From a virus (lineage: Duplodnaviria > Caudoviricetes), in IMG/VR virus record IMGVR_UViG_3300031992_000007, positions 1-64,000 of that record: a stretch of 64,000 bases of DNA, one strand, 5' to 3'. The position numbers were made by a program, and so were the translations under genes. A model generated the notes under the pieces. The model saw only the letters and a list, made by a program, of their open reading frames with translations. It was not told the origin of the DNA and ran no database searches. Below are positions 1,423 through 57,695 of the stretch, piece by piece. Numbering within the stretch: position 1 is the stretch's first letter; each line of letters begins with the position of its first letter.

Positions 1423-2268
1423 AGGTGTTAGTCCTGTATACGATAAAGCTTCTGCTAGAACAAATGGTGTACTAGATAGTGGGTTGGTTACTGCTGACGG
1501 ATGGTACTTCTTCTCTGAATGTGAACCTTCGGCACGCGGTAAAGTAAGGCTCTCCGGAGGTGTAACTCAGCGAAGTGATAAATTGTGGGGAACAAACTGC
1601 CTTTGCGTAGTTGGATACAGTAGTGACTACGGAACATTAAGTGGATACTGGTGGGCTCCTTATATCGAATCTGAGACACCTACATACAGGCTCTCCAAAA
1701 GGTGAAGCACGTGATTTCCCATCTATGGTTGTACAAGATTTGAGAACAGATGGAGATATAAGCTCCAAAATAGGTACCGCATGGAGCTTCTCCAATGTCT
1801 ATTATGCTGCCACATGGCAGATAGAAGGAAAGAAATATGACAGATGGCTCTCCCACAAGGTGCAGAAACATATGACGACTACATGACCAAAGAGTGGGTA
1901 TGTGTACATATTGGATCTATTGACAGATGGCAGAATGGTCTACAGTATCCAGCCGTTGGATCTTCAGGCACATACGGTAGAGGGCTCTCCTGAGGTGGGT
2001 CATCTAGACCAGGATTTGGAGAATGGATGATCGGAGGCAAACGAAAATCACCAGACAATGCGGATTCACCTTATCTATCTGTGTGTTCTTTTGGAGAATA
2101 CCTAAATAAACCAATCGCATGGCTCTCCTAGGTGGAAGCGACACTGGAACCAGTAATAAACTCCCACCAACAATGTTGATGTATATCCCAAATTGGACAG
2201 GTGGATTATTCCCAGATCAAGATGGACCAATGGCACACCGAGTCGGCACACTCAGATATAGGCTCTCC
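1423..2268 (+). repeat. cassette array 1: six (A)GGTG...GGCTCTCC-bounded in-frame peptide-coding cassettes
   Basis: Cassettes (GGT to CTCTCC): 1424-1555 (44 codons), 1559-1696 (46), 1701-1853 (51), 1859-1990 (44), 1994-2128 (45), 2131-2268 (46). All stop-free. Linkers gga, aaaa, cacaa, tga, ta. Confidence 0.9.
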
Positions 2269-2287
2269 TAACAAAATAAAACCTTAG

Positions 2288-2314
2288 CCTCAGGAGCCTC
2301 TAAGGCTCCTGAGG
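2288..2314 (-). terminator. intrinsic terminator of the lipoprotein gene, bordering array 1
   Basis: Stem CCTCAGGAGCC/GGCTCCTGAGG with a 5-nt loop; A-tract at about 2273-2281 on + is the U-tract on -. Confidence 0.7.
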
Positions 2315-2337
2315 TGAGTCACTAACGATCTAGACTT

Positions 2338-2868
2338 TTACCGAGCAGGAGCACACAGCTTGAAGGTTTCCTTATCCATGATGCTGTTGACTAGGTCAAC
2401 AACTTCCTGGTTGTTCGGGTTGATCCCGATACCTGTGCGAAAACCATTGCACGCCTCGTGGATAGCAACAGCGAACACATCCTGTTCCTGTCTCCACTTA
2501 GGATGCTTGATGAACAGATAATCGATACCCTTGACTCCGAGGTCAGCAGCCATCTTGACGAGGACAGCCTGTTCCTCAGTGACCTTACCCTGAGCGATGA
2601 GTTTCGTGATCGCTTCCTGAATGACCGGCGTCCACGCCTGCTCGAACGTCTGACCATCCTGCGGGATGAAACGTTCGGCGATCGTGACGATGACAACAGC
2701 ATTGGTCTTGTCCTGAGCCGTGATCTTCGGGATAAGGGCAGAAGCGTAGCCAGCCGCGAGACCCGCAGCATAAGCCTTCTGACCAACCGTCTCCTTTTCA
2801 GGGATGGACTTGCAACCCGTGAACACAGCGAGAGCGCACGCAAGTGCAGCAATAAACATCTTCTTCAT
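2338..2868 (-). CDS. putative lipoprotein
   Basis: MKKMFIAALACALAVFTG-C signal peptide with lipobox; 176 aa. Confidence 0.7.
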   Translation of the reverse strand: MKKMFIAALACALAVFTGCKSIPEKETVGQKAYAAGLAAGYASALIPKITAQDKTNAVVIVTIAERFIPQDGQTFEQAWTPVIQEAITKLIAQGKVTEEQAVLVKMAADLGVKGIDYLFIKHPKWRQEQDVFAVAIHEACNGFRTGIGINPNNQEVVDLVNSIMDKETFKLCAPAR

Positions 2869-2942
2869 TTTCGTTTACCTTTCCTTAGGGATTGATCGTT
2901 GTGACTATATAAGGATATAAACGAATAAAAAATAAAGAAGGA

Positions 2943-2970
2943 ACCTCCTGGCCGGTTAGGGCCAGGAGGT
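2943..2970 (-). terminator. intrinsic terminator
   Basis: ACCTCCTGGCC...GGCCAGGAGGT hairpin with adjacent A-tract on +. Confidence 0.65.
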
Positions 2971-3002
2971 AGGATCGAACTAGTGAACAGTTGCAAATCA
3001 GA

Positions 3003-3452
3003 TCAGTGAACCATCTCGTACTTGAGCCAGTCCTTGAAGATGTCTTCAGGAATGAACACAGTCCAAGGCTGAGGAGCATCTGCACCTTCTTCAGGCTGCT
3101 GCGCCACCTGGAACACTAGCATGCCAGGGTTCTTGGCGTTGCGTCCCTTGAAGGTCAGAGTGTCGTGAGCAGACACCTTGTACTCATCATCCGCCGAGAA
3201 CACCGCCGAGGTGGTGTACTTCTTGTTGTAGCGGAACTGGTAGCTATCGAACTTGTGTTCGCGGTTATACTTCTCAACCGCAAGCTTGAAGTCTTCGATG
3301 CGGAGCTTCGTGTTCTCAACGAAGGACGGAGCGACATCCGAAATGATTCCACGAAGCTGGTCGAAGAACTTGGTCTTGGCGTCGCAGCTGGCTTTGAACG
3401 AAGCGATGGCTTCCTGGACTTCAGGAAAAGCAGTGAGCTGAGTGATATCCAT
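3003..3452 (-). CDS. hypothetical protein
   Basis: ATG 3452 (MDITQL...) preceded by GAAAGGA RBS; phage-like codon bias. Confidence 0.7.
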   Translation of the reverse strand: MDITQLTAFPEVQEAIASFKASCDAKTKFFDQLRGIISDVAPSFVENTKLRIEDFKLAVEKYNREHKFDSYQFRYNKKYTTSAVFSADDEYKVSAHDTLTFKGRNAKNPGMLVFQVAQQPEEGADAPQPWTVFIPEDIFKDWLKYEMVH

Positions 3453-3481
3453 GATTGTTTCCTTTCGTGTGATTGTCTTTG

Positions 3482-3616
3482 TTATTTGCGGTTCTTTTTG
3501 ACCGACGGGGTTGTTTTGATCTTCTTGACCGAACACTTGCATACATGGCCAGGTTCATGCTTCTTGCATTTACCTCCACATTTGCACTGACCAGTTCCTT
3601 GACATTTGCAGTTCAT
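3482..3616 (-). CDS. small Cys/His-rich, metallothionein-like peptide (44 aa)
   Basis: GGAGGA RBS then MNCKCQGTGQCKCGGKCKKHEPGHVCKCSVKK...; 7 Cys, three CKC motifs; fills the gap between co-oriented genes. Confidence 0.5.
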   Translation of the reverse strand: MNCKCQGTGQCKCGGKCKKHEPGHVCKCSVKKIKTTPSVKKNRK

Positions 3617-3617
3617 T

Positions 3618-4016
3618 TCAGAATATCCTCCGCTGAATGTAGGTTCCTGTGTTGTCCACCGGAAGATCTCCATCTATCCCGTCTACACGGAAGGTGATTT
3701 CTGCCTCACCTGTCTCAGAGTCAACTCTGGTGATCTGATGAGTTACAGACACCTTAGAGAAGTAGATCGTGTTTGGCACGATGACATAGTCCTTCTCTAC
3801 CTTGAATTCAGCAGGGAACGACCGGAGGAGATCGTGCCCAGCCTGAGGGTAGGAGACCAGAGCCGCTTCATTGATCCGGGTCATCCACTCCCCCTTACCA
3901 GTGAGGTAGATAGGGCAGAATTCCGCATCTGTGATCTTGTCCTCTTTATCCCTGACGAGATGACGGGCAACAGCACAGATCATGAACTTTTCACTTTTCA
4001 GGAACTTTGGATTCAT
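3618..4016 (-). CDS. hypothetical protein
   Basis: ATG 4016 (MNPKFLK...) overlapping the end of the upstream gene; 132 aa. Confidence 0.6.
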   Translation of the reverse strand: MNPKFLKSEKFMICAVARHLVRDKEDKITDAEFCPIYLTGKGEWMTRINEAALVSYPQAGHDLLRSFPAEFKVEKDYVIVPNTIYFSKVSVTHQITRVDSETGEAEITFRVDGIDGDLPVDNTGTYIQRRIF

Positions 4017-4488
4017 CCTTAATCTCCACTTGGACTTTGGTCGGAACAGCATTGGTGGGAACAGGCTCATCGCAGATCCGGCATTCGTACCTTGTCTGGA
4101 ACGGGCACTGCTTGTGTGTGAGGTGCTGGATCGTATTGATGCAGTTGGACAGAGAAACGATGATGAACCCCACTCCAATGAAGATCCAGATGGCTTGTTC
4201 GACAGCGCGAAGTTTCGAGTCCACCTTCCGCATCTTACAGTAGCACTCGGCGATGTTGATCCAAGTTTTTGTCAGACTAATCGACTTGGTGACCGTTGGA
4301 TCAGTGTTATTATCATCACACTTCTCGATCAGCTTCTGACCTTCTTCGATCGCGTCTTCTACGTCCCGATTGGTTTCGTCACCGCTACGTTTGACCCGAA
4401 GATACTCCATCGTCTGTTTCCAGATGAGAAACATCCAGAGGAGAACCAGACTGCAGTCGCATAGTGCTTTTACTACATGATCGTTCAT
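3991..4488 (-). CDS. hypothetical membrane protein
   Basis: AAGGA RBS; two hydrophobic segments; 165 aa. Confidence 0.6.
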   Translation of the reverse strand: MNDHVVKALCDCSLVLLWMFLIWKQTMEYLRVKRSGDETNRDVEDAIEEGQKLIEKCDDNNTDPTVTKSISLTKTWINIAECYCKMRKVDSKLRAVEQAIWIFIGVGFIIVSLSNCINTIQHLTHKQCPFQTRYECRICDEPVPTNAVPTKVQVEIKDESKVPEK

Positions 4489-4503
4489 TTTGTTTCCTTT
4501 CTT

Positions 4504-4719
4504 TTAGTGATCGTTGCTGAAAATACTCCAGGTTTCATAGTGGTCTCCACCTAGTGGGTGGAAATAATAACTGTATGCTCGATACGGCTTACGTAGCAGT
4601 TTTCTAATGGGCGTGGTTACCGCCCAGTAGATCAATGCCACCAAAGCTATAATGAGCAGAAGTATTAATGCTAGAACCTGGAGCAGTATTTGACCAATGT
4701 TGATGAGTATGTCTATCAT
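4504..4719 (-). CDS. small membrane protein
   Basis: Long hydrophobic helix (ILLQVLALILLLIIALVALIYW); start uncertain (4719 or 4743). Confidence 0.45.
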   Translation of the reverse strand: MIDILINIGQILLQVLALILLLIIALVALIYWAVTTPIRKLLRKPYRAYSYYFHPLGGDHYETWSIFSNDH

Positions 4720-4725
4720 AGCACT

Positions 4726-4739
4726 AAGGTAATGTATAC
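4726..4739 (-). promoter_or_regulatory. phage promoter motif (TAYATTAC)
   Basis: Minus strand GTATACATTACCTT; the same motif recurs upstream of several minus-strand genes. Confidence 0.5.
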
Positions 4740-4757
4740 ACAAGTGCAGGACGGATA

Positions 4758-5042
4758 TTAGTCTCCGTAGTAGTCATCGGACTTCCTAGAGTCATCAAGC
4801 CGTTCGACCTTAGACTCAGCCAACTCTCTAGCCAACTCTTCGTCGTTGTCCCAGTTGTTAGCGATGAGCGCACCAAGAGTAGCTACAGCTACATCTTTGC
4901 TGACGAACTTAAGAGCATTGTCGACATTGGTGGTCATGCATGAAGATGCTCCACCGAATCCACCGTGACCGAAGTATACGACTGTAGTGGTCGTCTCGCC
5001 GTACAATTCGGTCTTAACACGTTTATGCATTATTACGAACAT
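4758..5042 (-). CDS. hypothetical protein
   Basis: AAGGAGA RBS; 94 aa. Confidence 0.6.
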   Translation of the reverse strand: MFVIMHKRVKTELYGETTTTVVYFGHGGFGGASSCMTTNVDNALKFVSKDVAVATLGALIANNWDNDEELARELAESKVERLDDSRKSDDYYGD

Positions 5043-5094
5043 GAGGTTTCTCCTTATTAATAAGGTAAAAAGAAAAGAGGTCGTGTTCCAGCAC

Positions 5095-6639: not shown

Positions 6640-6746
6640 TACTCGGAACTCCTTTGTAAAACCACGCACGAAAAATCTATAATATACATCCTCCTCGGTA
6701 AAGTAAAATAACCGACGAGGTGTTACAGTTTACAATAAGGAGTGAT

Positions 6747-8519
6747 ATGGCATCAGTCATCAACTACATTGGTCATATTTGGCTCCGGGAAAATAAAGAA
6801 CTCAATAGTGAACTCAATCCCAGCGGTTCTGTCCGCTGGGACGGTGCAAAGTCTTATTCGGACAATGCCAGGAAGTTCTCGATCGACAAACAGCTCAGGA
6901 TGTACCTCGATCAGCTTTTCGCGATCGCGTTCTATCACTCCTTCTACGGTAAGGGATGGAATGTCCTCATCGATGAGTACGTTGACGAGACCCTTACTAA
7001 CTTCGAGTTCGGAACCCTTGCCAAGTACAAACAAGAGACGCGAGACTATCACGCTGTCGACCAGATGCTTGAATCTGTAGACGAGCTGCTGCACTTCATC
7101 AAGAAGGGAACACTTCGGAAAGAGATCAACATCGATGACCTTCTGATGTTCCGTGAGCTTGGCGGAGTCGATGTTGGTTACCCGCTTGTTGAAGATGAGG
7201 AAAGGAAGTGGATCAAGCCTTATTTGATCTGGCTCAACTCCTACTGGCTGGGTTATTCCAAGGTTCACACTGCCACTGAGATCAAGAAGTGGTTCCTTCC
7301 TTCATTTAAATTCTTCCCGAATGGGTCGTGGGAGAAACCGACAGGTTGGTATACAGTGGGTTTAAATTACCATTCTATGTCGACCACGTTCTGCGCAGGC
7401 AATTCTTGCCAAGTAGAATCAGTCCGAAAGATAACGATCTATGACTATCTGGCGAGGTTTAACTTCGCCGGAGTGGCTATAGAGACTATTATCGGCAAGT
7501 TGGGAGACATGTGTCTATCGTTCGACGTCTTTAGACCTGGTACCTCAGCATCACAGAAAGTGTGCGCAGTTATTAGGGCTAATGTGCTGGGCATCATCAA
7601 CTTCGGAGGTGCATTCGGCAGATCGATAGATAGGGCACTCGCAGTGGGTAACGATTGCTTCCGCGGATGTTACGGAGCTTTCGAGGCAACCAAGGCCTTC
7701 GTAGATTTTCTGTCAAAAACCTACGGGGCTACCCTGAGTGACACCTCATTGGTTGCAAGGCTATTTAAAGGTTTCGCTGAGACAAAGCAGCAGAAAGAAT
7801 CTGCTGCCTACTTGGCTAAACTAGGCGGGAGTGCTTCCGCCGACGAACTTCACTCCTTTAAAGAGGAGTTAGGGAGTCTAGAAGCGCTGCAGTTCATTTC
7901 TCAGAATAATGCCCTGCTCGTGGCTCAGAGTCAGGAAGCTAATCCGAAGGCAGCTGCCGAAGGAGAGGAAACTGAGAAAGAGGAATCCGAGACGAAAGAG
8001 GACGACTCCAAATCCAAAGAGACCGAATCGGATAACCAGAATGAGGAAGAGAAGGAAGATGACAGCTCCGACTCTGATGAAGAACAGTCTGGTGATGCTG
8101 GTGAGGATGACACCTCCGAGGAAGAGGATGAGACCGATGGAGATAGTGATCAAGATGACGGGAGTGGACAAGCGGAGGAGTCGAGTGACACCTCTACTTC
8201 TTCTGATGATTCTGACATGCCTTCAGAAGACGAGCAACCGAACACATCTGATCCTAGGGGTTTCAAATTCAAGGTTTCTAATCCGGAAGCGGAAACTACG
8301 GATAGTGTGATGTTCCGAGAGGAGATGGATCATTTCCTTTCGAACATATTGGCCAATCCACCTGAAGATCTGTCACCTCAGACTATACAGACATTAACCT
8401 CTTTACACAGGTATTGGCTGCACACTCTGAGCATCGGCACGATCATGGGTATCCTGGGTAGTTGTGGTCTACGGCTACCTAGTTCACTGAAACAACTCAC
8501 AACAAAATGTACGGAGTAA
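6747..8519 (+). CDS. putative virion protein with long Asp/Glu/Ser tract (phiKZ gp119 position)
   Basis: AAGGAG RBS, ATG 6747; acidic low-complexity region at about 7950-8250; lies between helicase and MCP. Confidence 0.55.
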   Translation: MASVINYIGHIWLRENKELNSELNPSGSVRWDGAKSYSDNARKFSIDKQLRMYLDQLFAIAFYHSFYGKGWNVLIDEYVDETLTNFEFGTLAKYKQETRDYHAVDQMLESVDELLHFIKKGTLRKEINIDDLLMFRELGGVDVGYPLVEDEERKWIKPYLIWLNSYWLGYSKVHTATEIKKWFLPSFKFFPNGSWEKPTGWYTVGLNYHSMSTTFCAGNSCQVESVRKITIYDYLARFNFAGVAIETIIGKLGDMCLSFDVFRPGTSASQKVCAVIRANVLGIINFGGAFGRSIDRALAVGNDCFRGCYGAFEATKAFVDFLSKTYGATLSDTSLVARLFKGFAETKQQKESAAYLAKLGGSASADELHSFKEELGSLEALQFISQNNALLVAQSQEANPKAAAEGEETEKEESETKEDDSKSKETESDNQNEEEKEDDSSDSDEEQSGDAGEDDTSEEEDETDGDSDQDDGSGQAEESSDTSTSSDDSDMPSEDEQPNTSDPRGFKFKVSNPEAETTDSVMFREEMDHFLSNILANPPEDLSPQTIQTLTSLHRYWLHTLSIGTIMGILGSCGLRLPSSLKQLTTKCTE

Positions 8520-8526
8520 AACTCAA

Positions 8527-10722
8527 ATGAGTACTGCTATTGAAAACCTTTTCAAGAAGATCGACGAGCACGTCGCTTCTATGGAAGGTGCGAAACTCTC
8601 CGCCGAGTACGTTGAGGCCACGCGGTCTATCGGTCAGGCGGTTGAGACTTGGGCAGACAACCTCAACCTCGTCGACAAGAAGACGGTTGATGGTGTCGAA
8701 GTGTGCTATGCTTCGGAGTCTTATGATACGTCGGCTCTCGGTGGTATGCTGGGTGCTGAGCAGATCGTGGATCTCTGCAAGAAGGCGCACGTTGCGAACG
8801 AACACCTCGGCGCTGCCGCCAAGCGCGTTGCGGCCCTTCTGGACCAGACGCTCGGTAAGAGCGAGGGTCAGGCGTTCAGGTCTTATTCTTCGAGGAAGAC
8901 GACCGACAAGGTCATGTCTTCTGTTGAGTCGCTCTACCCGGCGGATCTCGTCCGTCGTCTCGGTGGCTCGCAGTCGCTCGAAGTATTCGGTATCCAGATG
9001 GACCGTGTTGAGCCGGATCTGAAGACGATCCTCACGATCGCCCTCCTCCAGTTCCACATGAACCTCACGCCCCGGATCGTCCCGGTTCAGACCGTGACGC
9101 AGGGTAACGTGACGATCGTCCGTGAGAACCTCCAGGTCTTCGATATGTCGAAGGATGCTAAGGAGCCGACCCGTGTGATCGAGCTCTATCGTGATCCTTC
9201 CCTCGTGTCGGTTGCCGCTCAGCGCATCAAGCCGCTGATGGGTGCTGACAACAAGAACGCAGCCTTCCTCGTCGCGGATGACATCTACAAGTTCGCGAAG
9301 AAGATCGATATGTTCGAGGTCGCTCTTGACAAGACGCGTCCGGGTTGGGACAAGTACAACCATACGGACTTCGTTGAGGACAACATCTGCCTCGACGGCG
9401 TCCTTATCAAGATCGAGAATTCGGATGTCTCGGGCAAGGCATTCTACCACATGCTCCCGATTCCGACCTCTCGTGGTCACTTCACTCAGGTGTCGCAGGA
9501 TGCCAAGTCGACGATCCGTCGTCTCTGGCTCGATCGTTATCCTACGCGCATCATCGCGGCTTCTCCGGCTGATACGAAGTCGGGCAAGGCGTCGGATGCG
9601 TCGGTTATCGCTGCTCTCACGAACGGCGCTGGCCTCGCGATCGATCTCCACATCGACGCCAACGTTGATCGTCAGACCTCGACGCTCGCTTCGGGCGGCT
9701 GGATCGGCGATCTCGCCATCAAGGGTGGTACCCTCTCTGACGCTGACCGCGCGGCGCTTCTGGCGAAGTTCACGGTCACGCTCGAGGGCTTCACGCTCGA
9801 TGCGCGTTTCAATGAAGACAACAAGCGCAAGACGTCCATCCGCGCTGAAGTTGTCCGTCGCTCCATGAGCTACGAGCTCCCCACGGGCCGTAACTTCGTG
9901 GTTGACGCAGCCATCGGTCAGGACGGTGTTACGAACGCTGCCGCGTACCTCGCGCAGCTGGAGCACATCGGCCGCGACCATAACAACCTCCAGATCATCG
10001 AGTCCACCCTCAAGGCGGTTCACGATGAGAACCTCTCCATGAACAACGACAAGGAAGTCCGTGACTCCCTCGCTAACCAGTACGCTGCTGGCGACCTGGT
10101 TAACCAGTTCGTTTACATGGACACCCTGGATATGAGCGGTATGTACGGCATCCGTTCTGCTGACGCCTCGGGCGATATCAAGCAGTTCGTGAAGCAGTAC
10201 TTCAACCGTCTCACCACCGCTCTGCTCGCGAAGACCTACTTCGACAAGCAGCTCTCGGAGAATGCCACGGTGACGTTCCGCGTGATCACTTCGGGTACGC
10301 TCCTCGGCGACCTGTTCAAGATGAAACACATCCATCAGCACCTCGACGGCGACAAGGACGGCACGGGTGGTGTTGAGCATGTGATGCCTCTTGACAACGG
10401 CGTCGTGCTCGAGTTCGTTACGACCACGTTCGAGGTCATGACGAACAAGATCCTTCTGATCCCGTACCTCGCTAACGCGCAGGGTTCGGTGCTGAACTTC
10501 GGCACAGACTTCGATCAGGGCACCCTGGTCGGCGCGATCAGCTATGCTGGTGAGGACAGCGCGGCGTTCCACCGCACGTTCTCCGTTACGCGTGAGCTCC
10601 TCATCCCGACGAACGTTATGGGCGCCGTGGTCGAGGTGTCTGGGTATACGGGTATCACCATGAACGACTCCACGAGCTCGCTCACGGTGGTCGGTGTTAC
10701 CGAAACGGCTCCCAACTCCTAA
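8527..10722 (+). CDS. major capsid protein (phiKZ gp120-like)
   Basis: 731 aa; strong high-expression codon bias; S-x-E maturation sites (SME, SLE) in the N-terminal region; LEGFTLDARFNEDNKR motif; synteny with helicase; strong terminator downstream. Confidence 0.8.
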   Translation: MSTAIENLFKKIDEHVASMEGAKLSAEYVEATRSIGQAVETWADNLNLVDKKTVDGVEVCYASESYDTSALGGMLGAEQIVDLCKKAHVANEHLGAAAKRVAALLDQTLGKSEGQAFRSYSSRKTTDKVMSSVESLYPADLVRRLGGSQSLEVFGIQMDRVEPDLKTILTIALLQFHMNLTPRIVPVQTVTQGNVTIVRENLQVFDMSKDAKEPTRVIELYRDPSLVSVAAQRIKPLMGADNKNAAFLVADDIYKFAKKIDMFEVALDKTRPGWDKYNHTDFVEDNICLDGVLIKIENSDVSGKAFYHMLPIPTSRGHFTQVSQDAKSTIRRLWLDRYPTRIIAASPADTKSGKASDASVIAALTNGAGLAIDLHIDANVDRQTSTLASGGWIGDLAIKGGTLSDADRAALLAKFTVTLEGFTLDARFNEDNKRKTSIRAEVVRRSMSYELPTGRNFVVDAAIGQDGVTNAAAYLAQLEHIGRDHNNLQIIESTLKAVHDENLSMNNDKEVRDSLANQYAAGDLVNQFVYMDTLDMSGMYGIRSADASGDIKQFVKQYFNRLTTALLAKTYFDKQLSENATVTFRVITSGTLLGDLFKMKHIHQHLDGDKDGTGGVEHVMPLDNGVVLEFVTTTFEVMTNKILLIPYLANAQGSVLNFGTDFDQGTLVGAISYAGEDSAAFHRTFSVTRELLIPTNVMGAVVEVSGYTGITMNDSTSSLTVVGVTETAPNS

Positions 10723-10795
10723 AAGTTGGATGGTCGTGTAGGACTGCGCAAATAAAGGCTTATGCGACCATAGTCTAAATAAGCGATGCAAAGTT

Positions 10796-10850
10796 GGGCA
10801 GGCGGGGCGTTGGCGCGCCCTGCCTGTCCTTCTGTTTCTTTTTTCTTTTT
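10796..10850 (+). terminator. MCP intrinsic terminator (left wall of array 2)
   Basis: GC-rich hairpin GGGCAGGCGGGGCG...CGCCCTGCCTGTCC followed by a long T-rich tract. Confidence 0.8.
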
Positions 10851-10853
10851 AGG

Positions 10854-11107
10854 GGAGAGCCCTGTATAGTCTCTACTATCAGGTTTTCCTGAAGGAGGAT
10901 TTTGATTGTTATACGGCCAATAAGTATTCCACACTTGTCCATAGATAACATGCTTCCCTTCCTCATTGTTCGCCTTTGTCGAATCACCTCCCGTTGGAGA
11001 GCCTGTGATCTTCTGTGATGAGAGATGCTGTATCATGTCGTGCAACTATTCCGGATTTATCTAAGTCGTATAGATAAGCAGTTTGTGACTCTATTAGTTC
11101 TTCACCT
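10854..11107 (-). repeat. cassette array 2, inverted part: two cassettes on the minus strand
   Basis: 11106-10996 (37 codons, GEELIESQ...EDHRLS) and 10988-10854 (45 codons, GDSTKANN...DYTGLS). Both run AGGTG...GGCTCTCC on - and are stop-free. Confidence 0.9.
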
Positions 11108-11110
11108 CAT

Positions 11111-11913
11111 GGTGTTGGTGTGTATGCTGGTGCACAAATGGCTAGACTGTTCTTGGTTTATGATCTCAAACAAGATCCCGGAAGAGTGGATTTCTACGGA
11201 TACATCCCACCATCCTACCCTAACAATAGCGCACCAAGGCTCTCCATCTAGGAGGTGTAGTAGTCCACACTGCTGCAATTATTGGCGTATCAGCATGGCC
11301 AAATGTATGGAAAGACGGTCAGGTGATGCAAACTGATTATGGTGGTCTGCAGGTGAATCATACTAGCAATTGGCTCTCCGCCGGAGGTGGAACAATAAGT
11401 GCTCAAGGTTATGATTATTGGGCTCTGATAACTAATATTGGAAGAAAAGCTCCGACTAGTACTGATTTCATTTACTACAAAGAAGGCTCTAATACATGGT
11501 CTAATCCAGGATGGCTCTCCCTTATCCAAAGGTGAAAGTCACCCTTACCCAAATATCGAAGGAAATATGAAACGTAAAGTGTGGAAAATAGAAACAACAG
11601 GTGACATTAGGGATATATACATGTACGCCTTCCCATCTGATGCAATAAGGCTCTCCGAGGTGGAGGTGAGATTAGAGCATATGAGCACTGGTTTGTTGGC
11701 GGTACACACATGTTAGGTAAAATAGCTGTAATACACAACGATGGTTATTATCTAGATGGAACGTGGGCTGATGCAGTAAGGCTCTCCTAAAAAGGTGAAG
11801 TAAGACCGTACTACCATTGGTTCGTGGATGGTATACACCAATTGGGAAAAGTGATTATAGTGTACAACGAGAGTTACTACCTGGGAACATCTGCTTATGT
11901 TGTAAGGCTCTCC
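11111..11913 (+). repeat. cassette array 2, forward part: six cassettes
   Basis: 11111-11245 (45 codons), 11254-11379 (42), 11386-11520 (45), 11531-11656 (42), 11659-11787 (43), 11794-11913 (40). All in frame and stop-free; linkers 2-10 nt. Confidence 0.9.
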
Positions 11914-11936
11914 TATTGACAAAAATAAAGATAGTA

Positions 11937-11963
11937 CTCCCTGACCCTTCTTGGGTCAGGGAG
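11937..11963 (-). terminator. DNA polymerase terminator (right wall of array 2)
   Basis: CTCCCTGACCC/GGGTCAGGGAG stem; A-tract 11921-11929 on +. Confidence 0.75.
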
Positions 11964-11976
11964 CTCCAGCTTCTTT

Positions 11977-13716
11977 TTAAGCTATTTGTACTTCTGGATG
12001 TCTTCTCTTCATCCATTCATCAATACCTTCGAATCCCGGCAATCCGAACCTCTTGCCAACTTCCATAGAGTTAGCTTCGGTATAGATCGCATCGTTCATG
12101 AAGTCATTGATGTCGAATGTCTTGTAGTTTCTTGTCTCTGGTGGCAACTGGATTGTTTCTACATTGACGATACCCCTTCTTCTAGAGTTGTCAATGAGTA
12201 GCAATGTTGCCATCTTGGTCTCCTTGGAACAGTTCAAAAGTTTCAAAAGTGAGGGGTACATCGACGTAACATCTATATCACAGACCATTCTGCACGCACG
12301 AACAACTGCATCATACTCCTTCAAAGCAGGTACCGAAACCATCAACGCCTTTTCAGGAGACAACACTGCACCACCTTTGTTCTTGATCATGTAGTCCCAC
12401 TTGTCATCGATCCTGTTACCTATAGCTGCTGGGATGCAACCACGGTCATCTAGGTATTCGAAGAAGTAGTTCTTAAGCTGGATAGACTGATGAGCGAAAC
12501 AATCCAAAGTAGAGGATCCTATCAGCATCATCATGTTGACCACGTCAGCATTCTTGATCTCCATCACGTGCATGATAAGAACGTCGACGATGTTGTACAC
12601 GACATATTCGACCTGATGAAGCCTCTGCATCCCCTGGTGGTTACCTTCATCACCGAACTCCTCGAAACTCATCTTACCAGCACCGATCTCTTTGCCGCCG
12701 ATGGCATCGAGTTTGTAAGAAGGTTCTTTTGGTTTGGCTTTACGAAGCCTTCCGTAGAGACACATGGCATCGTAGAACCTGGTATAATCAGTGAGGCTGA
12801 ACCAAGACCATCTATCGGTCATATGCCCATCCTTCTTACCAGGGTCTGCTTTGTACTTCGCTGTTCTGAATTTGAACGGAACGTCTGGATGACACATCAC
12901 ATTAGCTGGATCGACACCACGGAACTCCAGGCGTTTCATGATCCAGGGGATGTCGTAGTCCATGTTCCACACACCACAGAAGTCTGGTTTGCACTCGTGT
13001 ATCTTATCGAAGATCCATTTGATTAAATCAAGTTCTTTGTCGAACAGCTGAAGGTCTAGACGTATATCAGTTTTCTTGTACGCCTCTAGACCTTTCTTGT
13101 TAAGCTGTTTAACGAACATTGGTTCAACCTTGTTCTTCCAATAGTTCCTCACTTCATCTGTAGTGTGGTTAAGGAAGAAGGATTTGAGTATGCCAGTAAA
13201 AGTTCTTCCATCTCCGTTCATGTAAGTACAGACGATGACATCATCGTGTCCAAACACGTCAGTCTCAATATCGAGTGCACCTACATTGTACTTAAGAGGA
13301 AGCCTGCCTCCATTAGACCTTTTGTATCCTAACTTGAGGTGTACACCATAATCAATGTCAGCTCCATAAACGTAAGGACTAGATAGCATCTCCTTAAGCC
13401 TCACGTAGAACGGAGGTCTTTTCCACTGACCTGGTTTACAGTTAAGTGCACTCCACAATGTTCCCGCAATGTTGTTGACACGACATCTGTACATGTCAAG
13501 TTCTTCTTTAGATGCAAGTTCTCGTTTGACTGTGTTCCTTCGACAACCAGGTTTAGCTACCCATACCTTGGTCTCTGGTCGTTCGATGATCTTGAGCTCA
13601 CTGTGACCATCCTCCAGACTCTTGATACATGCCACGTAAGCATCGTAGTCTTTGTCTCCTCCGACTCGTGCCAAGTATTCTCCGTGGATGTAGACTGAAT
13701 CCTTAACTGGAATCAT
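11977..13716 (-). CDS. family B DNA polymerase subunit (3'-5' exonuclease plus motif A; split phiKZ-type polymerase)
   Basis: ExoI LDIETD, ExoII WNMDYDIPW, SYKLDAI, ExoIII YNIVD, motif A DIDVTSMYPS; no motif B or C; GGAAGGAG RBS before ATG 13716. Confidence 0.85.
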   Translation of the reverse strand: MIPVKDSVYIHGEYLARVGGDKDYDAYVACIKSLEDGHSELKIIERPETKVWVAKPGCRRNTVKRELASKEELDMYRCRVNNIAGTLWSALNCKPGQWKRPPFYVRLKEMLSSPYVYGADIDYGVHLKLGYKRSNGGRLPLKYNVGALDIETDVFGHDDVIVCTYMNGDGRTFTGILKSFFLNHTTDEVRNYWKNKVEPMFVKQLNKKGLEAYKKTDIRLDLQLFDKELDLIKWIFDKIHECKPDFCGVWNMDYDIPWIMKRLEFRGVDPANVMCHPDVPFKFRTAKYKADPGKKDGHMTDRWSWFSLTDYTRFYDAMCLYGRLRKAKPKEPSYKLDAIGGKEIGAGKMSFEEFGDEGNHQGMQRLHQVEYVVYNIVDVLIMHVMEIKNADVVNMMMLIGSSTLDCFAHQSIQLKNYFFEYLDDRGCIPAAIGNRIDDKWDYMIKNKGGAVLSPEKALMVSVPALKEYDAVVRACRMVCDIDVTSMYPSLLKLLNCSKETKMATLLLIDNSRRRGIVNVETIQLPPETRNYKTFDINDFMNDAIYTEANSMEVGKRFGLPGFEGIDEWMKRRHPEVQIA

Positions 13717-13818
13717 AGTTACTCCTTCCATTGAATCATACGAACTGAGCAAAATGTAAAAACAAAAAGGTTAAGAGCCTCTACCAGCCTTCCGACCGGT
13801 AGAGGGGTATGAGGGAAA

Positions 13819-14496
13819 TTAAGCGTCTTGCTTTTCTCGACTAGCCTGTTCTTCTTCACCCTTCTTGAGAACAGCAGCGATCTCCTCAGGAGTGAACTGA
13901 TGGTAAGGATCACCTTCAAGCTTGCCGAAGGTAAGTTTGCCATCTTTGTCCCTGCCTGTGCGGGCAATGATGACAGGCTTGAAATCTTTCGGGTCACTGC
14001 ACAGCACAAGCTGCTTGAGGTTGGTGATCGTCTTGATCATCCTGCGATCAGGATCGAATCCACTGTACAGACCATCGGGTCCAAGAGTAGGAAGTTCCTT
14101 GTGTGCCTGAAGGAAGACAACTCCCGTTCCAACATAGATCTTCTTGAAGTCCTCGATGTTCTTGCCACCAGATAGCATGAACCCAAGGAGAAGCTTCTGA
14201 AGAAGCTGAGAGTAGGTCTTATTATCCTCAGGGACGCTCGTAAGCATCGAAGCGGAGATGTAGTTGTAGCCGTTCAAGGCCCGAGCTAATTCGATCATCT
14301 CAAGGAGCAAGGTCTTCTGATGCTTCTCACGCATCTCCTTGGCTTTCTCGAGCATCTCGTGCATCTTGGCCTCTTTAACTTCCTCGTCGTGTTTGAGCTC
14401 TTCTTCGATCTTCTTCATCTCAGCTTCGCGCTCTTCATCTGTTAGCGGCGGTGCTGAAGAAGGCTGAGGTTCGAGGTTGGTGTTCGTTTCGTCCAT
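13819..14496 (-). CDS. hypothetical protein
   Basis: 225 aa, translationally coupled to ruvC. Confidence 0.7.
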   Translation of the reverse strand: MDETNTNLEPQPSSAPPLTDEEREAEMKKIEEELKHDEEVKEAKMHEMLEKAKEMREKHQKTLLLEMIELARALNGYNYISASMLTSVPEDNKTYSQLLQKLLLGFMLSGGKNIEDFKKIYVGTGVVFLQAHKELPTLGPDGLYSGFDPDRRMIKTITNLKQLVLCSDPKDFKPVIIARTGRDKDGKLTFGKLEGDPYHQFTPEEIAAVLKKGEEEQASREKQDA

Positions 14497-15092: not shown

Positions 15093-15170
15093 TTCCGTTC
15101 TCCTTATTGGAGAGTGAAGTGGGGTGTATGCGAATCCTATATATTAGTTTCAAAAAATAAAAGAAGAAAA

Positions 15171-44097: not shown

Positions 44098-44120
44098 TGA
44101 CGAACTCCTATTCTCATTTG

Positions 44121-45095: not shown

Positions 45096-45195
45096 TGTAT
45101 TCTCCCAAAAAGAAAATGTTGTTCGGATTCCGTATATTTAAAAGTTAATCTACGTTACACGTAGGTAACATATACACGAAACCCGAACGAATTTA

Positions 45196-52678: not shown

Positions 52679-52763
52679 ACTTTTCTCCTGAAAAGGCGAA
52701 GTAAAAACTATGGTCTTTTGCGAGACTATAGCATGGTTCAAAGAACAAAAAGGAATAAATCAA

Positions 52764-55667
52764 ATGTCAACTGTTGCTCCTTATCCTCACGTAGAGATTG
52801 GGGTCAGAGACGAGTCGATTTACATCCCTATTGACACTGAGGACATGCCGCTTTCGCAGCCGCTGTACTTCATGCGTGCCAAGAAGGGCCCTGTCGGGGT
52901 TCCTGTCTGGTGCGTGTCGTACGACGTAGCCTGCAGGGTGTTCGGCGCGGACACCTTCAACAAGCGCAGTCCGTACTTCTCGGAACAGGCGAAGTTCTTG
53001 CTCCAGACGTTCCCGATGAACGGCGCATGGATTATGCGTGTTGCCGGTCCGACGGTCACGTCCGCTGATATCCAGATCGAAGTGGGTATCTCTAAGGAGA
53101 CGGTCGATGTTCCGCAGTGGCAGAGGGACGAGAACGGCGCATTCGTTCTCGAACTCGACGGATCGAAGATTCCGATCAACGATGAGGGCAAGCCGTGCGA
53201 GAAGATAGAGAATCCTGATCACAAGGCTATCTATCGTCGCGCGACTGAAACGATCGCTATCCAGGGTCGTACCTACTTCACGCGCGATGCGAATCGTTCC
53301 TACGCTGCTATCAACCGTAGGGATCGTCGTATCAAGGACGTTGAGTATTTCGCTGGTAACGGCACGCCTACTCTGGCTGTTGTCGATACTGCCACAGAGA
53401 CTGAGCCTAAGGCTGGTGTCCGTTACTTCGAGTTGGACATCACGGGTGAAGAGGGTGCTGAGACGTATGCTGCGAAGTATATCGTCGATCTGACCGCTTT
53501 CGATAGCGAGAAGACATACCTCAAGCTCACGGGCTGGTCCGGTGGTTACACGGCAGTCACGACTGTCGATGATGGTTCTGGTACGCAGGTTGGTCCTGTG
53601 CTTCCGCAGATCCCCGTTGGTAACACGCAGGGTGATCGCTTCGTCAAGATTCAGGAGAACGTCAGCCTCAAGCTCGTTGAGGTCGATGGCGGTTACGCTG
53701 TCGATGCTTCTGATTCCGAGACGGCTGCGGCGTACGGTTCGTACTTCTTCATGGGTACGCTCGACGAGACCGATCCTTACACGTACACGAACGCTGAGGT
53801 TCCGGCTGGCACGTACATCGCTGACACCGAACTCTACTACTTCTACGGCTGGCTTGATGACTACACTCTCGAGCCGCAGGCCAAGATCCCTGGTCGCAAG
53901 CTTGTGTGGCGTGCTCGTGTCGCGGATCGCTCCGCTGATACTGGTCGTGCCGTTGGCAAGTTCAAGACCTACGAGACCGAGAACTTCAAGTGGTATCCAG
54001 TCGTGGATATCGTTGCGGAGAACCCGGGTAAGTGGGGCGAGTCGTTCGGTATTCGTCTGTACTTCGACAAGGATCGCAACACGATTGCGCTCCAGCAGCA
54101 GAACGGTGCTGTCAACTACACGGTTGCTCCTATCGAGCTTCTCGATGGTGACACGCTCCCGACGGCGGTTGTGTCGTCGACACAGGACATCTGCGTTGTC
54201 GGTACGATGCGTGACGGAGTTGTTGACCTCGAGACCGACGTTGACCTCTCGCTCAACAAGCGTATCCCGAACATGTACAAGGGCCTGCAGACCCTTCCGA
54301 TCAAGATCGTTCCGGTCTCCGAGGCTTGGAATGCTATCGGTAAGGAGTTGATGGCTGCTGAAATCTCGCAGGAAGCCCGTCGTGAGATCAAGCGTCTCTA
54401 TCCGACGTTCCGCACTGTTGTGGACACTGAGGGTACCGAAACGCCTGAGACCTTCGTGGATGCTCTCTACGGCAAGGTCGTCACTGACATGGCTGATGTT
54501 GGCGAGCTCGATGGTCACATGGCTAACCCGCTCAGCTGCATGGATGCGGAAGAGATTCCGTACTTCACGACGGCTGTTGTGGACAGCGATGATGAACTCG
54601 TTACTGCCGACTCGCGTATCGATGTTGCGAAGGTCTATGTCCCGGCGCAGTCTGTCCCGATTTACCTCGGCGGCGGTAACGACGGCGATATCCTCGATAA
54701 CGACATCGAGAAGTACATCCGTGCGCAGATCAAGGCTGGCCAGGGTGGTACGCAGGAATATCTCCTCGACTATCCGCGCTGCCCGTTCAACGCAATCTAC
54801 GACTCTGGTGTGTCGGTGAAGACGAAGAAGGCGTACATCGACATGATGGCCTTCCGCGACAACGTTGTGATCAACCTGGCTACTCAGACGACCTGGCGTA
54901 CGGCGACGAATGAGGAATACTCGCTCAACGGTGAGTACCCGAACAATCGCTCGGACGACGAGTCGATCGGTGCGTCGCTTCGCTCCTATGCGTGGCTGAT
55001 GCGTGAGGACGTGAACAATGGTACGGAAGCGTGCCGTTGCAAGATCTTCCTTCATGCTGGTAAGATCAGTGGTTTCGATGGCTGGGTACCTGCGACCCTC
55101 TGGATCGCGATGAAGGATGCCGAGTATCTGAACCTCGATCACATCGATCAGGAGCCTGCTGGCCTGCCTAACTCGGCGGTCACTTGCTTCACTGAGGTGT
55201 CGTGGCGTGCTGGAACTGCGGACACGCAGAGCCGTTGCTGGAATGCTGGTCTCAACTACTGGCAGTCTTACGACAAGGATACGGCTGATGGTCAGGCGCG
55301 TCTGCACTACGCTGCGCTCCGTACTGTCTACCGCTACGAGACTTCTGTTCTCGTCGACTCGGGCGTTGTGAACGCGCTCTGCTTCTCTAAGGACATCGTC
55401 CGCAAGAGCTGGGCTAAGTTCTCTGGCGTCAAGATGTGGTCGGCTGAGCTGAATGCTCGTGTCACCAAGGACCTTACTCAGCGTCTCAGCTACATGCTGA
55501 ACGGTAAGTATACGGCCGAGGTGAATGTGTATCAGACTGATGAAGACGTCAAGCTCGGTTATACGCGCCACGTCGACATCATCCTGACTTCGCCCGCTAC
55601 CAACCGCGTCTGGCAGACCACTATCATCTGTCGTCGTGAGGGTTACGATCCCAATGCGGCTGAGTAA
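52764..55667 (+). CDS. tail sheath protein (phiKZ gp29-like) with insertion
   Basis: 967 aa; GVRDES, P-L-YF...KGP, YLGGGNDG, YDSGVS..TKK, LRTVY motifs; high-expression codons; followed by the tube gene. Confidence 0.85.
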   Translation: MSTVAPYPHVEIGVRDESIYIPIDTEDMPLSQPLYFMRAKKGPVGVPVWCVSYDVACRVFGADTFNKRSPYFSEQAKFLLQTFPMNGAWIMRVAGPTVTSADIQIEVGISKETVDVPQWQRDENGAFVLELDGSKIPINDEGKPCEKIENPDHKAIYRRATETIAIQGRTYFTRDANRSYAAINRRDRRIKDVEYFAGNGTPTLAVVDTATETEPKAGVRYFELDITGEEGAETYAAKYIVDLTAFDSEKTYLKLTGWSGGYTAVTTVDDGSGTQVGPVLPQIPVGNTQGDRFVKIQENVSLKLVEVDGGYAVDASDSETAAAYGSYFFMGTLDETDPYTYTNAEVPAGTYIADTELYYFYGWLDDYTLEPQAKIPGRKLVWRARVADRSADTGRAVGKFKTYETENFKWYPVVDIVAENPGKWGESFGIRLYFDKDRNTIALQQQNGAVNYTVAPIELLDGDTLPTAVVSSTQDICVVGTMRDGVVDLETDVDLSLNKRIPNMYKGLQTLPIKIVPVSEAWNAIGKELMAAEISQEARREIKRLYPTFRTVVDTEGTETPETFVDALYGKVVTDMADVGELDGHMANPLSCMDAEEIPYFTTAVVDSDDELVTADSRIDVAKVYVPAQSVPIYLGGGNDGDILDNDIEKYIRAQIKAGQGGTQEYLLDYPRCPFNAIYDSGVSVKTKKAYIDMMAFRDNVVINLATQTTWRTATNEEYSLNGEYPNNRSDDESIGASLRSYAWLMREDVNNGTEACRCKIFLHAGKISGFDGWVPATLWIAMKDAEYLNLDHIDQEPAGLPNSAVTCFTEVSWRAGTADTQSRCWNAGLNYWQSYDKDTADGQARLHYAALRTVYRYETSVLVDSGVVNALCFSKDIVRKSWAKFSGVKMWSAELNARVTKDLTQRLSYMLNGKYTAEVNVYQTDEDVKLGYTRHVDIILTSPATNRVWQTTIICRREGYDPNAAE

Positions 55668-55691
55668 TCCAACACGAAAGGAGATTGAAAA

Positions 55692-56636
55692 ATGGCAAGT
55701 TACGAAAACTTTCTTAAGAACAAGAAGGTTCTTACGCCGGATGGTGGCATAGTCTCTGACCTCATCACAGGTGGTCAGCTCGGTTACGGTTACAAGGCCT
55801 CTGGCTTCGACGCCGCGACCCCGCTGGCTCTTCCGCCTGCGTTCATCGTCGTCCTTCAGACTCCTACGATGTGGGATAACCTGAATGACGAGGGTGTGCT
55901 TCGTCAGACTGTGAAGTGTCTCTTCGAGACACACGCCAAAGCGGTCACTGGTATCGATGCGAACTACACGCTCGAGAATCAGGGTCAGCCTGTCGGTCAC
56001 GACTCGCAGGAACTCAAGGTTCCGACGCGCTCCACTCGTGCTCCTGTTGATCCGAACTTCACCTGGAGTGAGGTCACGGGTAACCTGGTGTGGCGTGTCA
56101 TGCATCGCTGGATCTGGGATATTTCCAACCCGGATACTGGTACGGCGTTCGAGCACGAAGGTGCCAACGTCAGTGAGGCTGCGCTCAATACGTACACGAT
56201 GTCCTCGTATGCGTTGACGTTCGCGGTTCTCCAGTACGACAAGACGATGCATCCTGATCGTATGCTGGATGGCTCGATCATCACCAACGTCTACCCGACG
56301 ACCACTGGTGAGTTCGGTATGGAGAGGACGGAGGGAACCACGAAGGTTCCTGAGCGTGCTATCGCCTTCACTGGTTACATCATTCACAACGAGCGTACGA
56401 AGGAGATCGCCCGTACCATCGCCAAGAGCATCAAGCTCCGTGGTGAGACGTACAAGGTCGCCCGTGCGAACGTAGATGACAATGTGCCGGTCAGCCAGCT
56501 GCTCGGTACAGTTGGTCTGGGTGACAATATCCAGCTCACGCGTACCGCCGAGCGTAAAGACTGGAACATCGCTGCTCCTAGCGGTGAGAAGGGTCCTACG
56601 AATCAGCTCAACTACCCGTACGCGATCAAAGGTTAG
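55692..56636 (+). CDS. tail tube protein (phiKZ gp30-like)
   Basis: 314 aa directly after the sheath; LFETHAKAVTGID, P-TTTGE motifs; strong terminator downstream. Confidence 0.8.
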   Translation: MASYENFLKNKKVLTPDGGIVSDLITGGQLGYGYKASGFDAATPLALPPAFIVVLQTPTMWDNLNDEGVLRQTVKCLFETHAKAVTGIDANYTLENQGQPVGHDSQELKVPTRSTRAPVDPNFTWSEVTGNLVWRVMHRWIWDISNPDTGTAFEHEGANVSEAALNTYTMSSYALTFAVLQYDKTMHPDRMLDGSIITNVYPTTTGEFGMERTEGTTKVPERAIAFTGYIIHNERTKEIARTIAKSIKLRGETYKVARANVDDNVPVSQLLGTVGLGDNIQLTRTAERKDWNIAAPSGEKGPTNQLNYPYAIKG

Positions 56637-56674
56637 CGTAAGAACTTCGATCTACAAAGTCAAGTTCAACATCT

Positions 56675-56720
56675 CCATCCTGGGCCCTCACGGGTCCAGG
56701 ATGGGATCTTTTTCTTTTTG
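56675..56720 (+). terminator. sheath/tube terminator (left wall of array 3)
   Basis: CCATCCTGGGCCC/GGGTCCAGGATGG stem plus T-tract. Confidence 0.8.
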
Positions 56721-56722
56721 TT

Positions 56723-57695
56723 AGGTGGGACAGGATTGGAATACCCATTTGTGAACTATGGGGATCCATCCAGCTCCATGATAAAGGTAATAAACCATAG
56801 AGGGAAATACTCTGCGGATTTTACTCAAGGACAATCGATCTTAAGTGCTCCTGGATGGCTCTCCAGGTGGGTACTTATACAGAACAGATGTAGATATATT
56901 CAACTACAGTGAAGGAGGCATTAGCGACCTAGGTAGATGTGGAATATGGGATTCTGTTACAACACATCCAATACAGAAAACCAGATGGCTCTCCAAGGTG
57001 GAGAGTATCTATACGTCAATCCACGAAACAACTTGTCTGCACGGGTAACGCAAATTAAATATGATGGCACCAGAGAATTTATTCCATATAACTCGAATAA
57101 ATCTAAAGAACAGAACGAATTGGTGATATGGCTCTCCTAGTGATGTGAGAGGTAGTACGTGGCAGTATGCAGCATCTAGAATAGGTGTTCAAGGTAGGTA
57201 CGGAGAATGGACTAATATTTGGAACTGGCCATACAGCTCTCGGTCTTATGAATCACCAGTAAGAGAGTTAAGGCTCTCCCAGGGAGGTGTAGGAATGCAT
57301 AGACCAGATGGAGACAATGGAAATCCTTGGGTATGTGGATCTACAACTGTAAACAACATTGGACAACCTCTGACGTATTACTCGAGAGTTAATCTTGGCG
57401 CAGATTCTGTGAAGAAAGTAGTAAGGCTCTCCCACTCATAGGTGCAGCAGATTTCGGATTAATGATGTTGACTGTGGGCTACCCTATGGGTTATGCAGAT
57501 CATGGAAACCAAGGAGTCGATCATCCTGACAGACCTAGATTTCAAAGGCTCTCCGCCGGAGGTGGAAATGAGATTAGACCTTTTGGATCAATTATTGACT
57601 TTAACGGTCAACTCGATTACCTAGGAAATGGGTGGGTATATTTCTTACCAAATGATCCGTTATGGACCAATAAGTCTTATTCTAAAAGGCTCTCC
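56723..57695 (+). repeat. cassette array 3: seven in-frame peptide-coding cassettes
   Basis: 56724-56864 (47 codons), 56866-56994 (43), 56997-57137 (47), 57151-57279 (43; AGGTA variant, with an in-frame AGGTG also at 57183), 57286-57432 (49), 57441-57554 (38), 57561-57695 (45). All stop-free; linkers 1-13 nt. Confidence 0.9.

Follow-up and report, generated by a model that had tools for sequence, protein, structure and literature searches.

In this study, we describe a system of silent peptide cassettes in an uncultured virus known from the IMG/VR record IMGVR_UViG_3300031992_000007, which is 265,480 bp long and rated 100% complete by CheckV; the first 64 kb of the record is the stretch of DNA in which the cassettes were initially noticed and is referred to here as the window. 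Fifty-two unexpressed cassettes very probably form a genome-wide store that is copied at the DNA level into the tip of one fibre-like gene, with the donor being kept. This gene, which we call the acceptor, is an open reading frame (ORF) of 1412 amino acids (aa) located outside the window, on the minus strand at 224,574-228,812 of the genome, and it holds one cassette in frame. Cassettes are replaced wholesale and exactly between two DNA borders, the donor is retained, and exchange also takes place between the silent arrays. The initial annotation of the window had postulated an expressed acceptor with matching borders and its alteration by recombination or gene conversion; the ORF described above provides the former, and near-identical relatives, which carry different cassettes exactly between the borders and retain the donor, provide the latter.

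The store would serve a single site, namely the last ~45 residues before a constant 6-residue tail of the acceptor protein. A cassette would be copied at the DNA level into this site and would displace the resident one, the donor staying in place, and a phage population would therefore carry many alternative tips, which are most likely receptor-binding tips.

Organization of the cassettes

The cassettes are recognized by their 3' end, the 8-mer GGCTCTCC, which occurs 21 times in the window versus 2.0 expected (with a maximum of 7 in 100 shuffles), all copies being located inside three arrays of 6, 8 and 7 units. When the units are delimited from the first (A)GGT after the preceding motif through GGCTCTCC, every one of them (21/21) is 111-153 nt long, has a length divisible by 3 and contains no stop codon from GGT to TCC, and the encoded peptides end in R-L-S in 12 cases, in W-L-S in 7 and in G-L-S in 2. 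The arrays, the open frames and the tally of endings thus agree with the initial annotation, whose description of (A)GGTG starts also holds for most units and for the AGGTA variant that opens the unit at 57151 in the third array; it does not hold for the unit at 11111 in the second, which begins TGGTG and not AGGTG.

In the whole genome, GGCTCTCC is present in 53 copies, 52 in silent units at nine loci and the last inside the acceptor. Every silent unit (52/52) has a length divisible by 3 and is open in frame 0, and each of the remaining five frames is interrupted by stops in 39 to 52 of the 52, so the preservation of frame claimed for the window extends genome-wide. Linker lengths modulo 3, again over the whole genome, are evenly spread (14, 13 and 15), indicating that frame is unconstrained between units and, therefore, that the arrays are not read through; moreover, linkers often contain stops. 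Neither start codons nor spaced ribosome-binding sites were found at the unit borders. The absence of border start codons and the unconstrained linkers bear out the view that the arrays are not ordinary genes.

The borders are fixed at the nucleotide level, as had been claimed: Leu is CTC, Ser is TCC and Gly is GGT throughout, and these codons are unchanged even in relatives whose constant region is only ~50% identical. The information content of the units is limited to A-GGT-G and (A/T)(A/T/G)GGCTCTCC. The sequences between these borders are of a different kind from phage genes, with a third-position G+C of 0.37 versus 0.55, a codon usage that does not share the phage bias, and enrichment in G, N, S, Y and W. 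Their orientation also differs: 50 of the 52 silent units lie on the plus strand, whereas 174 of the 247 called ORFs (~70%), the acceptor included, lie on the minus strand, so that 50/52 units point the opposite way to the acceptor and run antisense to most genes. In a comparison of 73 cassettes, matches were confined to orthologous copies, to expressed copies and their own donors, and to two paralogous pairs, every other pair being unrelated at E 1e-4; the acceptor and its donors have only 5 and 8 nt in common, at the borders. Known RNA genes were ruled out as an identity for the cassettes, since ARAGORN reported no tRNA or tmRNA and Rfam no match (window, acceptor locus, one array locus and one relative).

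The possibility that the units are expressed alone, as small peptides or RNA-spliced modules, or that they are decayed repeats or an assembly artefact, is extremely improbable. The units are indeed ORFs under some protein-level constraint, but their lack of start codons and spaced ribosome-binding sites, the frame-unconstrained and often stop-containing linkers, and the DNA-level exchange documented below all speak against stand-alone expression; as for an artefact, the same architecture is found in independent assemblies from several projects, and an 8-nt motif cannot mislead an assembler. RNA-level joining, once considered as an alternative, is likewise not needed, because the change sits in the DNA.

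The acceptor gene

In the acceptor, the copy of GGCTCTCC lies 21 nt ahead of the stop codon, and the C-terminus consists of a constant YWWLRSAG, one 50-residue cassette and a constant 6-residue tail, PLITIG. This cassette and its borders match, at 160 of 160 nt, a silent unit that lies 19 kb from the acceptor (243,698-243,857) and is the last of the array at 243 kb; the identity stops at the borders.

Support for the acceptor being a tail fibre or receptor binder is indirect only. The acceptor N-terminus is similar, by eye, to those of two downstream paralogues, and the neighbouring paralogue P0036 passes the Pfam cut-off for DUF6273, a C-type-lectin-like domain of phage receptor-binding proteins whose C-terminal part is varied by diversity-generating retroelements (DGRs) (PMC10743442; bioRxiv 10.1101/2024.10.15.618418). 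A direct hhalign comparison of the acceptor with the DUF6273 paralogues was not significant, and its protein atlas neighbours, DUF6273 clusters at 0.83, are to be taken as a lead only. Together with these paralogues, a weak tail-fibre PHROG match of the divergent neighbour and the layout of the motifs are consistent with the tail-fibre or receptor-binding loop suggested in the initial annotation; this part of the suggestion stands as indirect. Weighing against a receptor-binding role, the acceptor ORF itself has no Pfam or PHROG match, and its AlphaFold2 model, with a pLDDT of 40, is unusable for the fold of the tip.

A hairpin 3' of the acceptor stop codon, whose position is kept in five lineages, was also considered as a part of the system and rejected, as it resembles an ordinary terminator.

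Exchange of cassettes among relatives

Relatives were identified in two ways: the last 293 residues of the acceptor, used as the query of an exhaustive HMMER search, yielded homologues of 1553-2010 aa, and a word search added more. All of them are ENA metagenome contigs, of up to 260 kb. A blastn search with array 3 against 50,697 phage records gave no match, motif scans of IMG/VR yielded nothing beyond chance matches and a tandem protein repeat of the ordinary kind (L037), and protein-guided scans of IMG/VR and JGI metagenomes revealed no relatives.

The acceptor homologues form six further 90%-identity clusters, which have the same constant flanks and unrelated cassettes in every full-length member. 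One cluster presents 7 different cassettes among its 10 full-length members and the others 2-3. Six sibling loci of that cluster were compared, four of them aligned together; the ENA samples with the siblings are ERZ26858457, ERZ26859168, ERZ26858448, ERZ26859166, ERZ26859175 and ERZ26858495, and the complete contigs measure about 240-260 kb. These loci are 99.5-99.7% identical over 14.5-24 kb and, scattered single-nucleotide polymorphisms (SNPs) aside, differ solely by replacement between GCCGGAGGT and GGCTCTCC, the DNA borders being the same even where the preceding codons have changed (sibling L131). In the case of sibling L132, the expressed cassette is the silent cassette kept at 598-756 by all six siblings, with three differences between the expressed and silent copies that are not adenine-specific. 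As this cassette is still silent in all six, the donor has been retained, as it has in the 265-kb genome. In addition, three contigs terminate 21-25 nt past the acceptor stop codon, which would be expected of assemblers faced with several alleles at this place.

The movement of cassettes is not restricted to the acceptor. When a nine-unit array (contig L129) is set against the eight-unit one of the sibling L139, the terminal units and one internal unit prove to have been replaced, with similarity breaking at GGCTCTCC and resuming at AGGTG and with most linkers being different; judged from this alignment, silent arrays swap cassettes among themselves. Pieces of the acceptor 5' flank are found in linkers, as GCCGGA five times and as an 11-nt version once in the 265-kb genome, and as a 12-nt version in L129, and cassettes therefore also pass from the acceptor to the arrays, carrying some 5' flank with them.

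The two ends of the exchanged piece behave differently. The 3' joint is invariant in 12/12 acceptor DNAs, whereas two of the 5' joints are shifted in frame by 3 nt and one has a 2-nt insertion; the acceptor 5' flank reads GCCGGA, GCAGGA or GTCGGA, and one acceptor contains two cassettes with an in-frame 12-nt linker between them. With regard to selection, the ratio of nonsynonymous to synonymous divergence (pN/pS) is 0.46 for orthologous silent cassettes versus 0.08 for the constant part of the acceptor, and pS is practically equal (0.14 versus 0.15). The silent cassettes are therefore not hypermutated and are under weaker protein-level selection, as expected of modules that are expressed only part-time.

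Some natural alleles are defective or altered. In the 260-kb relative L137 (14606-14712), two extra bases at the 5' border shift the frame of the fibre gene, which stops before the constant tail, and cassette alleles with an internal deletion (P0018) and with a 15-nt duplication (P0020) were also found. Imprecise 5' joints and alleles such as these would fit a process with no dedicated machinery, in which rare microhomology-driven template switching or illegitimate recombination by the ordinary replication and repair enzymes of the phage is enriched by strong selection from host-receptor variation, and the borders are kept for their residues and as microhomology. Although no dedicated enzyme was found either (see below), we consider this explanation unlikely: 52 cassettes keep the same 8-nt and 5-nt borders, and the codons are maintained across ~50%-identical lineages; swaps are frequent among genomes that have diverged by only 0.3-0.5% (7 alleles in 10 contigs); and three assemblies break at the site. 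Fixed borders, frequent swaps and assembly breaks speak for swapping far above the background rate and for a DNA motif that is itself under selection.

Within the siblings L131-L134, which are 99.6% identical, SNPs are clustered in the middle of the acceptor (11,040-13,100), for example at 11,840-11,852 and 12,065-12,092, and the silent cassette at 598-756 is a SNP patch as well, with 5 in 159 nt. This distribution points to more variable patches or to short conversion tracts.

Mechanism and candidate enzymes

The asymmetry of the joints suggests copying that begins at the 3' border and rejoins the recipient through short homology at the 5' one. In the mechanism that we propose, copying would be anchored at the invariant GGCTCTCC and would proceed through the cassette, and the 5' side would be resolved by AGGTG plus up to 14 further bases of acceptor-like flank. 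Such a process would explain the exact 3' joints, the variability of 5' joints and linkers, and the co-copying of adjacent cassettes.

A candidate participant is encoded ~1.8 kb downstream of the acceptor (221,821-222,822, minus strand). The 333-aa product, P0038, matches phrog_3206 ('Avd protein of DGR'), a profile that BPP-1 Avd matches as well, with E 1.3e-7 over profile positions 3-130 of 154, and the same region is found at E 2.6e-9 in a six-frame search. The gene is kept downstream of the acceptor in all six lineages aligned, and in L131 it comes directly after it. The P0038 model is a four-helix bundle, with pLDDT 78-93 across most of residues 12-135, whose best structural matches are two IVS/Avd-family proteins (Z 16); its score against Avd itself (Z 13.3) is level with those of generic bundles. 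The C-terminal part is a 190-residue tail, mostly acidic, proline-rich and of low complexity, with short conserved motifs. P0038 has no Pfam match, a profile search of PDB sequences was empty, hhalign against BPP-1 Avd alone was not significant, and neither tblastn against phages nor a search for shorter homologues revealed canonical Avd relatives. That this Avd-like protein takes part in copying is a speculative element of the mechanism. The end of its gene is overlapped by a small Cys-rich ORF of 119 aa (221,532-221,891, minus strand) with no family match, which has a 93-aa counterpart at the same place in L129 and may be a zinc-binding partner.

Several points weigh against the store and its copying as proposed here. 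Recombinase or reverse transcriptase (RT) genes, which the initial annotation had proposed to look for nearby, were not found: six-frame searches across the whole 265-kb genome detected no RT (PF00078 up to E 1; phrog_1423, the family that BPP-1 Brt matches at 1.9e-125, up to E 10), no tyrosine or serine recombinase (PF00589 and PF00239, up to E 1), no RecA or Rad51 (Pfam), and neither a GIY-YIG nuclease nor an N6/N4 methyltransferase. A role as fibre chaperone is an alternative for the Avd-like protein, whose modelled fold scores only slightly above generic helical bundles. Ordinary homologous recombination needs longer homologies than 5 and 8 nt, and donor retention could also be compatible with reciprocal exchange between two genome copies in one cell. 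Switching inside one population is deduced from differences between samples and from the three broken contigs. Finally, the absence of GGCTCTCC outside cassettes in the whole genome (0 observed versus 5-8 expected) is only suggestive of avoidance, as 5% of the 8-mers with this composition do not occur either. The only nuclease-type family detected is an HNH_3 homing-type endonuclease gene at 176,720-177,556 (minus strand; Pfam E 7e-15), which was rejected as the nuclease of the system, as it is far from every array and has no specific link to it, and the PF01844 match is sub-threshold.

The location of the Avd-like gene raises the question of a descent from DGRs that still operates through RNA, with array RNA being converted into cDNA by an undetected or very divergent RT together with the Avd-like protein, and this cDNA taking the place of the acceptor cassette without adenine mutagenesis. 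Integration of DGR cDNA characteristically leaves an exact 3' joint and a variable 5' joint, the same combination that is observed here. The donor is kept, as in a DGR; the order of target and Avd-like gene is that of DGRs, and the variable stretch is C-terminal and beside DUF6273 paralogues (PMC10743442; bioRxiv 10.1101/2024.10.15.618418). We nevertheless find this route quite improbable, since no RT was found in a genome rated as complete, none is recorded within 20 kb around the acceptors of relatives, and arrays 2 and 3 are placed between convergent terminators with no recognizable promoter. Furthermore, the donor equals the acceptor at all adenines over 160 nt, the L132 differences are not adenine-specific and synonymous divergence is normal; DGR mutagenesis as such is rejected on these three grounds.

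Conservative site-specific exchange, of the shufflon or multiple-inversion type, would involve a recombinase that escaped recognition and crosses over at GGCTCTCC and AGGTG, two crossovers between inverted sites swapping the cassettes. The inversion of 50/52 donors relative to the acceptor is in keeping with such exchange, as single crossovers would then invert rather than delete, and so are the two array 2 cassettes inverted head to head with a breakpoint at their 5' borders, the fixation of borders at the DNA level and the absence of the motif elsewhere in the genome. We regard it as very unlikely all the same: neither a tyrosine nor a serine recombinase was found, cores of 5 and 8 nt without flanking arms are far below the length of known recombinase sites, a variable 5' joint and a 2-nt insertion are unexpected of a conservative recombinase, and the donor is retained in two independent lineages, with the old acceptor cassette not being found at the donor position.

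Within the preferred reading, that of a store copied at the DNA level, a more specific version can be put forward as a doubtful possibility: the system would be a new class in viruses, an RT-less relative of DGRs in which the Avd-like protein, with a nuclease or polymerase, uses the 8-nt GGCTCTCC and the 5-nt AGGTG as addresses, writes ~50 unrelated cassettes into a fibre tip and files used tips back. If this were true, the phage genome would be a rewritable library of host specificities.

Comparison with other variation systems

The known means by which phages vary their receptor-binding proteins are DGR mutagenesis, invertible segments and recombination with other phages. Keeping dozens of unrelated tips ready and copying them into a single expression site is what Borrelia, Neisseria and trypanosomes do. 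In a full-text literature search, we found no description of such a silent-cassette store in a phage or in any virus. The system acts like the silent-cassette systems of Borrelia and Neisseria, and in its place and neighbourhood it is like a DGR target, yet it fails the defining features of each.

In Borrelia burgdorferi, the single expression site vlsE is accompanied by an inverted array of head-to-tail silent cassettes that are promoterless and start-less, are bounded by short direct repeats and are copied non-reciprocally. The vls cassettes are ~500 bp long, ~90% alike among themselves and homologous to vlsE throughout, and conversion is segmental. The phage system is similar in having one expression site, promoterless and start-less donors inverted relative to it, and donors that are kept. 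It differs in that the cassettes are only 111-153 nt long, mutually unrelated and replaced whole, with 5 + 8 nt in common, and in being distributed over nine loci of a viral genome. General background on the vls system is given elsewhere (PMC9704580, PMC5995427).

In the case of Neisseria gonorrhoeae, silent partial copies (pilS) replace part of the expressed pilE gene with the donor unchanged, in tracts bounded by microhomology, and CCGG at the tract borders of donor and recipient is cut by restriction enzymes and is required (PMC13321361). The donor is kept in both systems, and this short fixed border motif offers a precedent for borders acting as cut sites. Gonococcal pilS copies share homology with pilE, and RecA and a G4 structure are required (PMC13321361), whereas inside the phage cassettes there is no homology and no RecA gene was detected in the phage by Pfam. 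In general, donors in silent-cassette gene conversion are homologous along the tract, which those of the phage are not. CCGG restriction was rejected as a general requirement in the phage, as the CCGG of the acceptor flank is replaced in three lineages (GCAGGA or GTCGGA) and most donors are without it.

The resemblance to DGRs, as in Bordetella phage BPP-1 (mtd/avd/TR/brt), comprises a variable C-terminal stretch, an Avd-family gene next to it, one-way templated copying and an exact 3' joint and, as in DGRs of gut phages, neighbouring paralogues with DUF6273 (PMC10743442). The differences are the lack of an RT and of adenine mutagenesis, the use of 52 unrelated templates rather than one homologous template, and the fusion of the Avd-like domain to a largely low-complexity 190-residue tail.

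As in shufflons, alternative C-terminal segments of an adhesin or fibre are stored inverted and are joined to a constant N-terminal part by DNA rearrangement. Shufflon and multiple-inversion systems include Rci/sfx of R64, Min of p15B, Cin of P1 and Gin of Mu, and they rely on a dedicated recombinase, on sites of 19-34 bp and on reciprocal inversion of a few adjacent segments. The phage system, in contrast, has cores of 5 and 8 nt, keeps its donor and spreads 52 segments over 265 kb; searches for a recombinase found none, and the exchanged piece is internal, being followed by the constant 6-residue tail. A phage shufflon has been described (PMC6109161).

Short conserved motifs flanking hypervariable receptor-binding segments are also a trait of the T-even adhesin gp38. 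Tetart et al. reportedly described, in 1998, hypervariable segments of gp38 between conserved glycine-rich motifs, where recombination changes specificity. Exchange there takes place between co-infecting phages and there is no internal store, whereas in the present system the store is in the own genome of the phage. Structural background on these adhesins is available (PMC12032242).

Silent-cassette replacement is thus already known in itself, and there is a real chance that the reaction used here is new. The present sequences point to a recombination reaction with only 5 and 8 nt of address sequence, whose enzymes may include a repurposed DGR accessory protein. The system would explain how an uncultured lineage of jumbo phages keeps pace with variable host surfaces. 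In addition, ~50 natural loop sequences per genome would be tolerated at one structural site, which is useful for the engineering of phage host range in laboratory strains.

Arrays of the window and their surroundings

The first array consists of six in-frame, stop-free cassettes of 132-153 nt on the plus strand (1424-1555, 1559-1696, 1701-1853, 1859-1990, 1994-2128 and 2131-2268), separated by linkers of 2-5 nt. It is antisense to the minus-strand genes on its flanks, and the terminator-like hairpin of the adjoining minus-strand gene (2286..2307) comes directly after it.

The second array is preceded by a strong plus-strand terminator-like hairpin at 10796..10829, with a stem of 15 pairs, 11 of which are G-C, and a T-rich tail after it. 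It starts with two inverted silent cassettes on the minus strand (11106-10996 and 10988-10854; 111 and 135 nt, in frame and stop-free) and continues with six GGCTCTCC-ended units on the plus strand (11111-11245, 11254-11379, 11386-11520, 11531-11656, 11659-11787 and 11794-11913). The two parts meet head to head at 11095-11115, where their 5' borders are 2 nt apart, and this junction looks like the scar of an inversion with its breakpoint at the 5' border. The linker preceding 11386 is GCCGGA, the same as the acceptor 5' flank, and the final two units are paralogues. Directly after the array lies the minus-strand terminator-like hairpin (11936..11964) of the DNA polymerase gene.

The third array is formed by seven plus-strand cassettes of 114-147 nt, in frame and stop-free (56724-56864, 56866-56994, 56997-57137, 57151-57279, 57286-57432, 57441-57554 and 57561-57695), with linkers of 1-13 nt. 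The last cassette is preceded by the linker GCCGGA and has a counterpart, 56% identical, in the array of a relative. The terminator-like hairpin of the upstream virion-protein gene (56674..56705, plus) ends 18 nt ahead of the array; the hairpin of the portal-like gene (57712..57740, minus), 3' of the array, faces it, and array 3 is therefore located between convergent terminators. Arrays 2 and 3 are alike in this respect, and no recognizable promoter is present at either.

The genes that flank the arrays are ordinary core genes, namely those of a DNA polymerase (11977-13752, minus), a virion structural protein (55692-56636) and a portal-like protein (57756-60674, minus), which places the arrays in scattered positions among unrelated modules and not beside tail genes. 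At 8497-10791, long ORFs of 764 aa (minus strand) and 731 aa (plus strand) overlap. No PHROG match was obtained for the former, and the terminator at 10796-10829, also on the plus strand, suggests that the latter is the real gene. The split RNA polymerase beta subunit and the virion and portal-like proteins match those of phiKZ-like jumbo phages at 18-25% identity.

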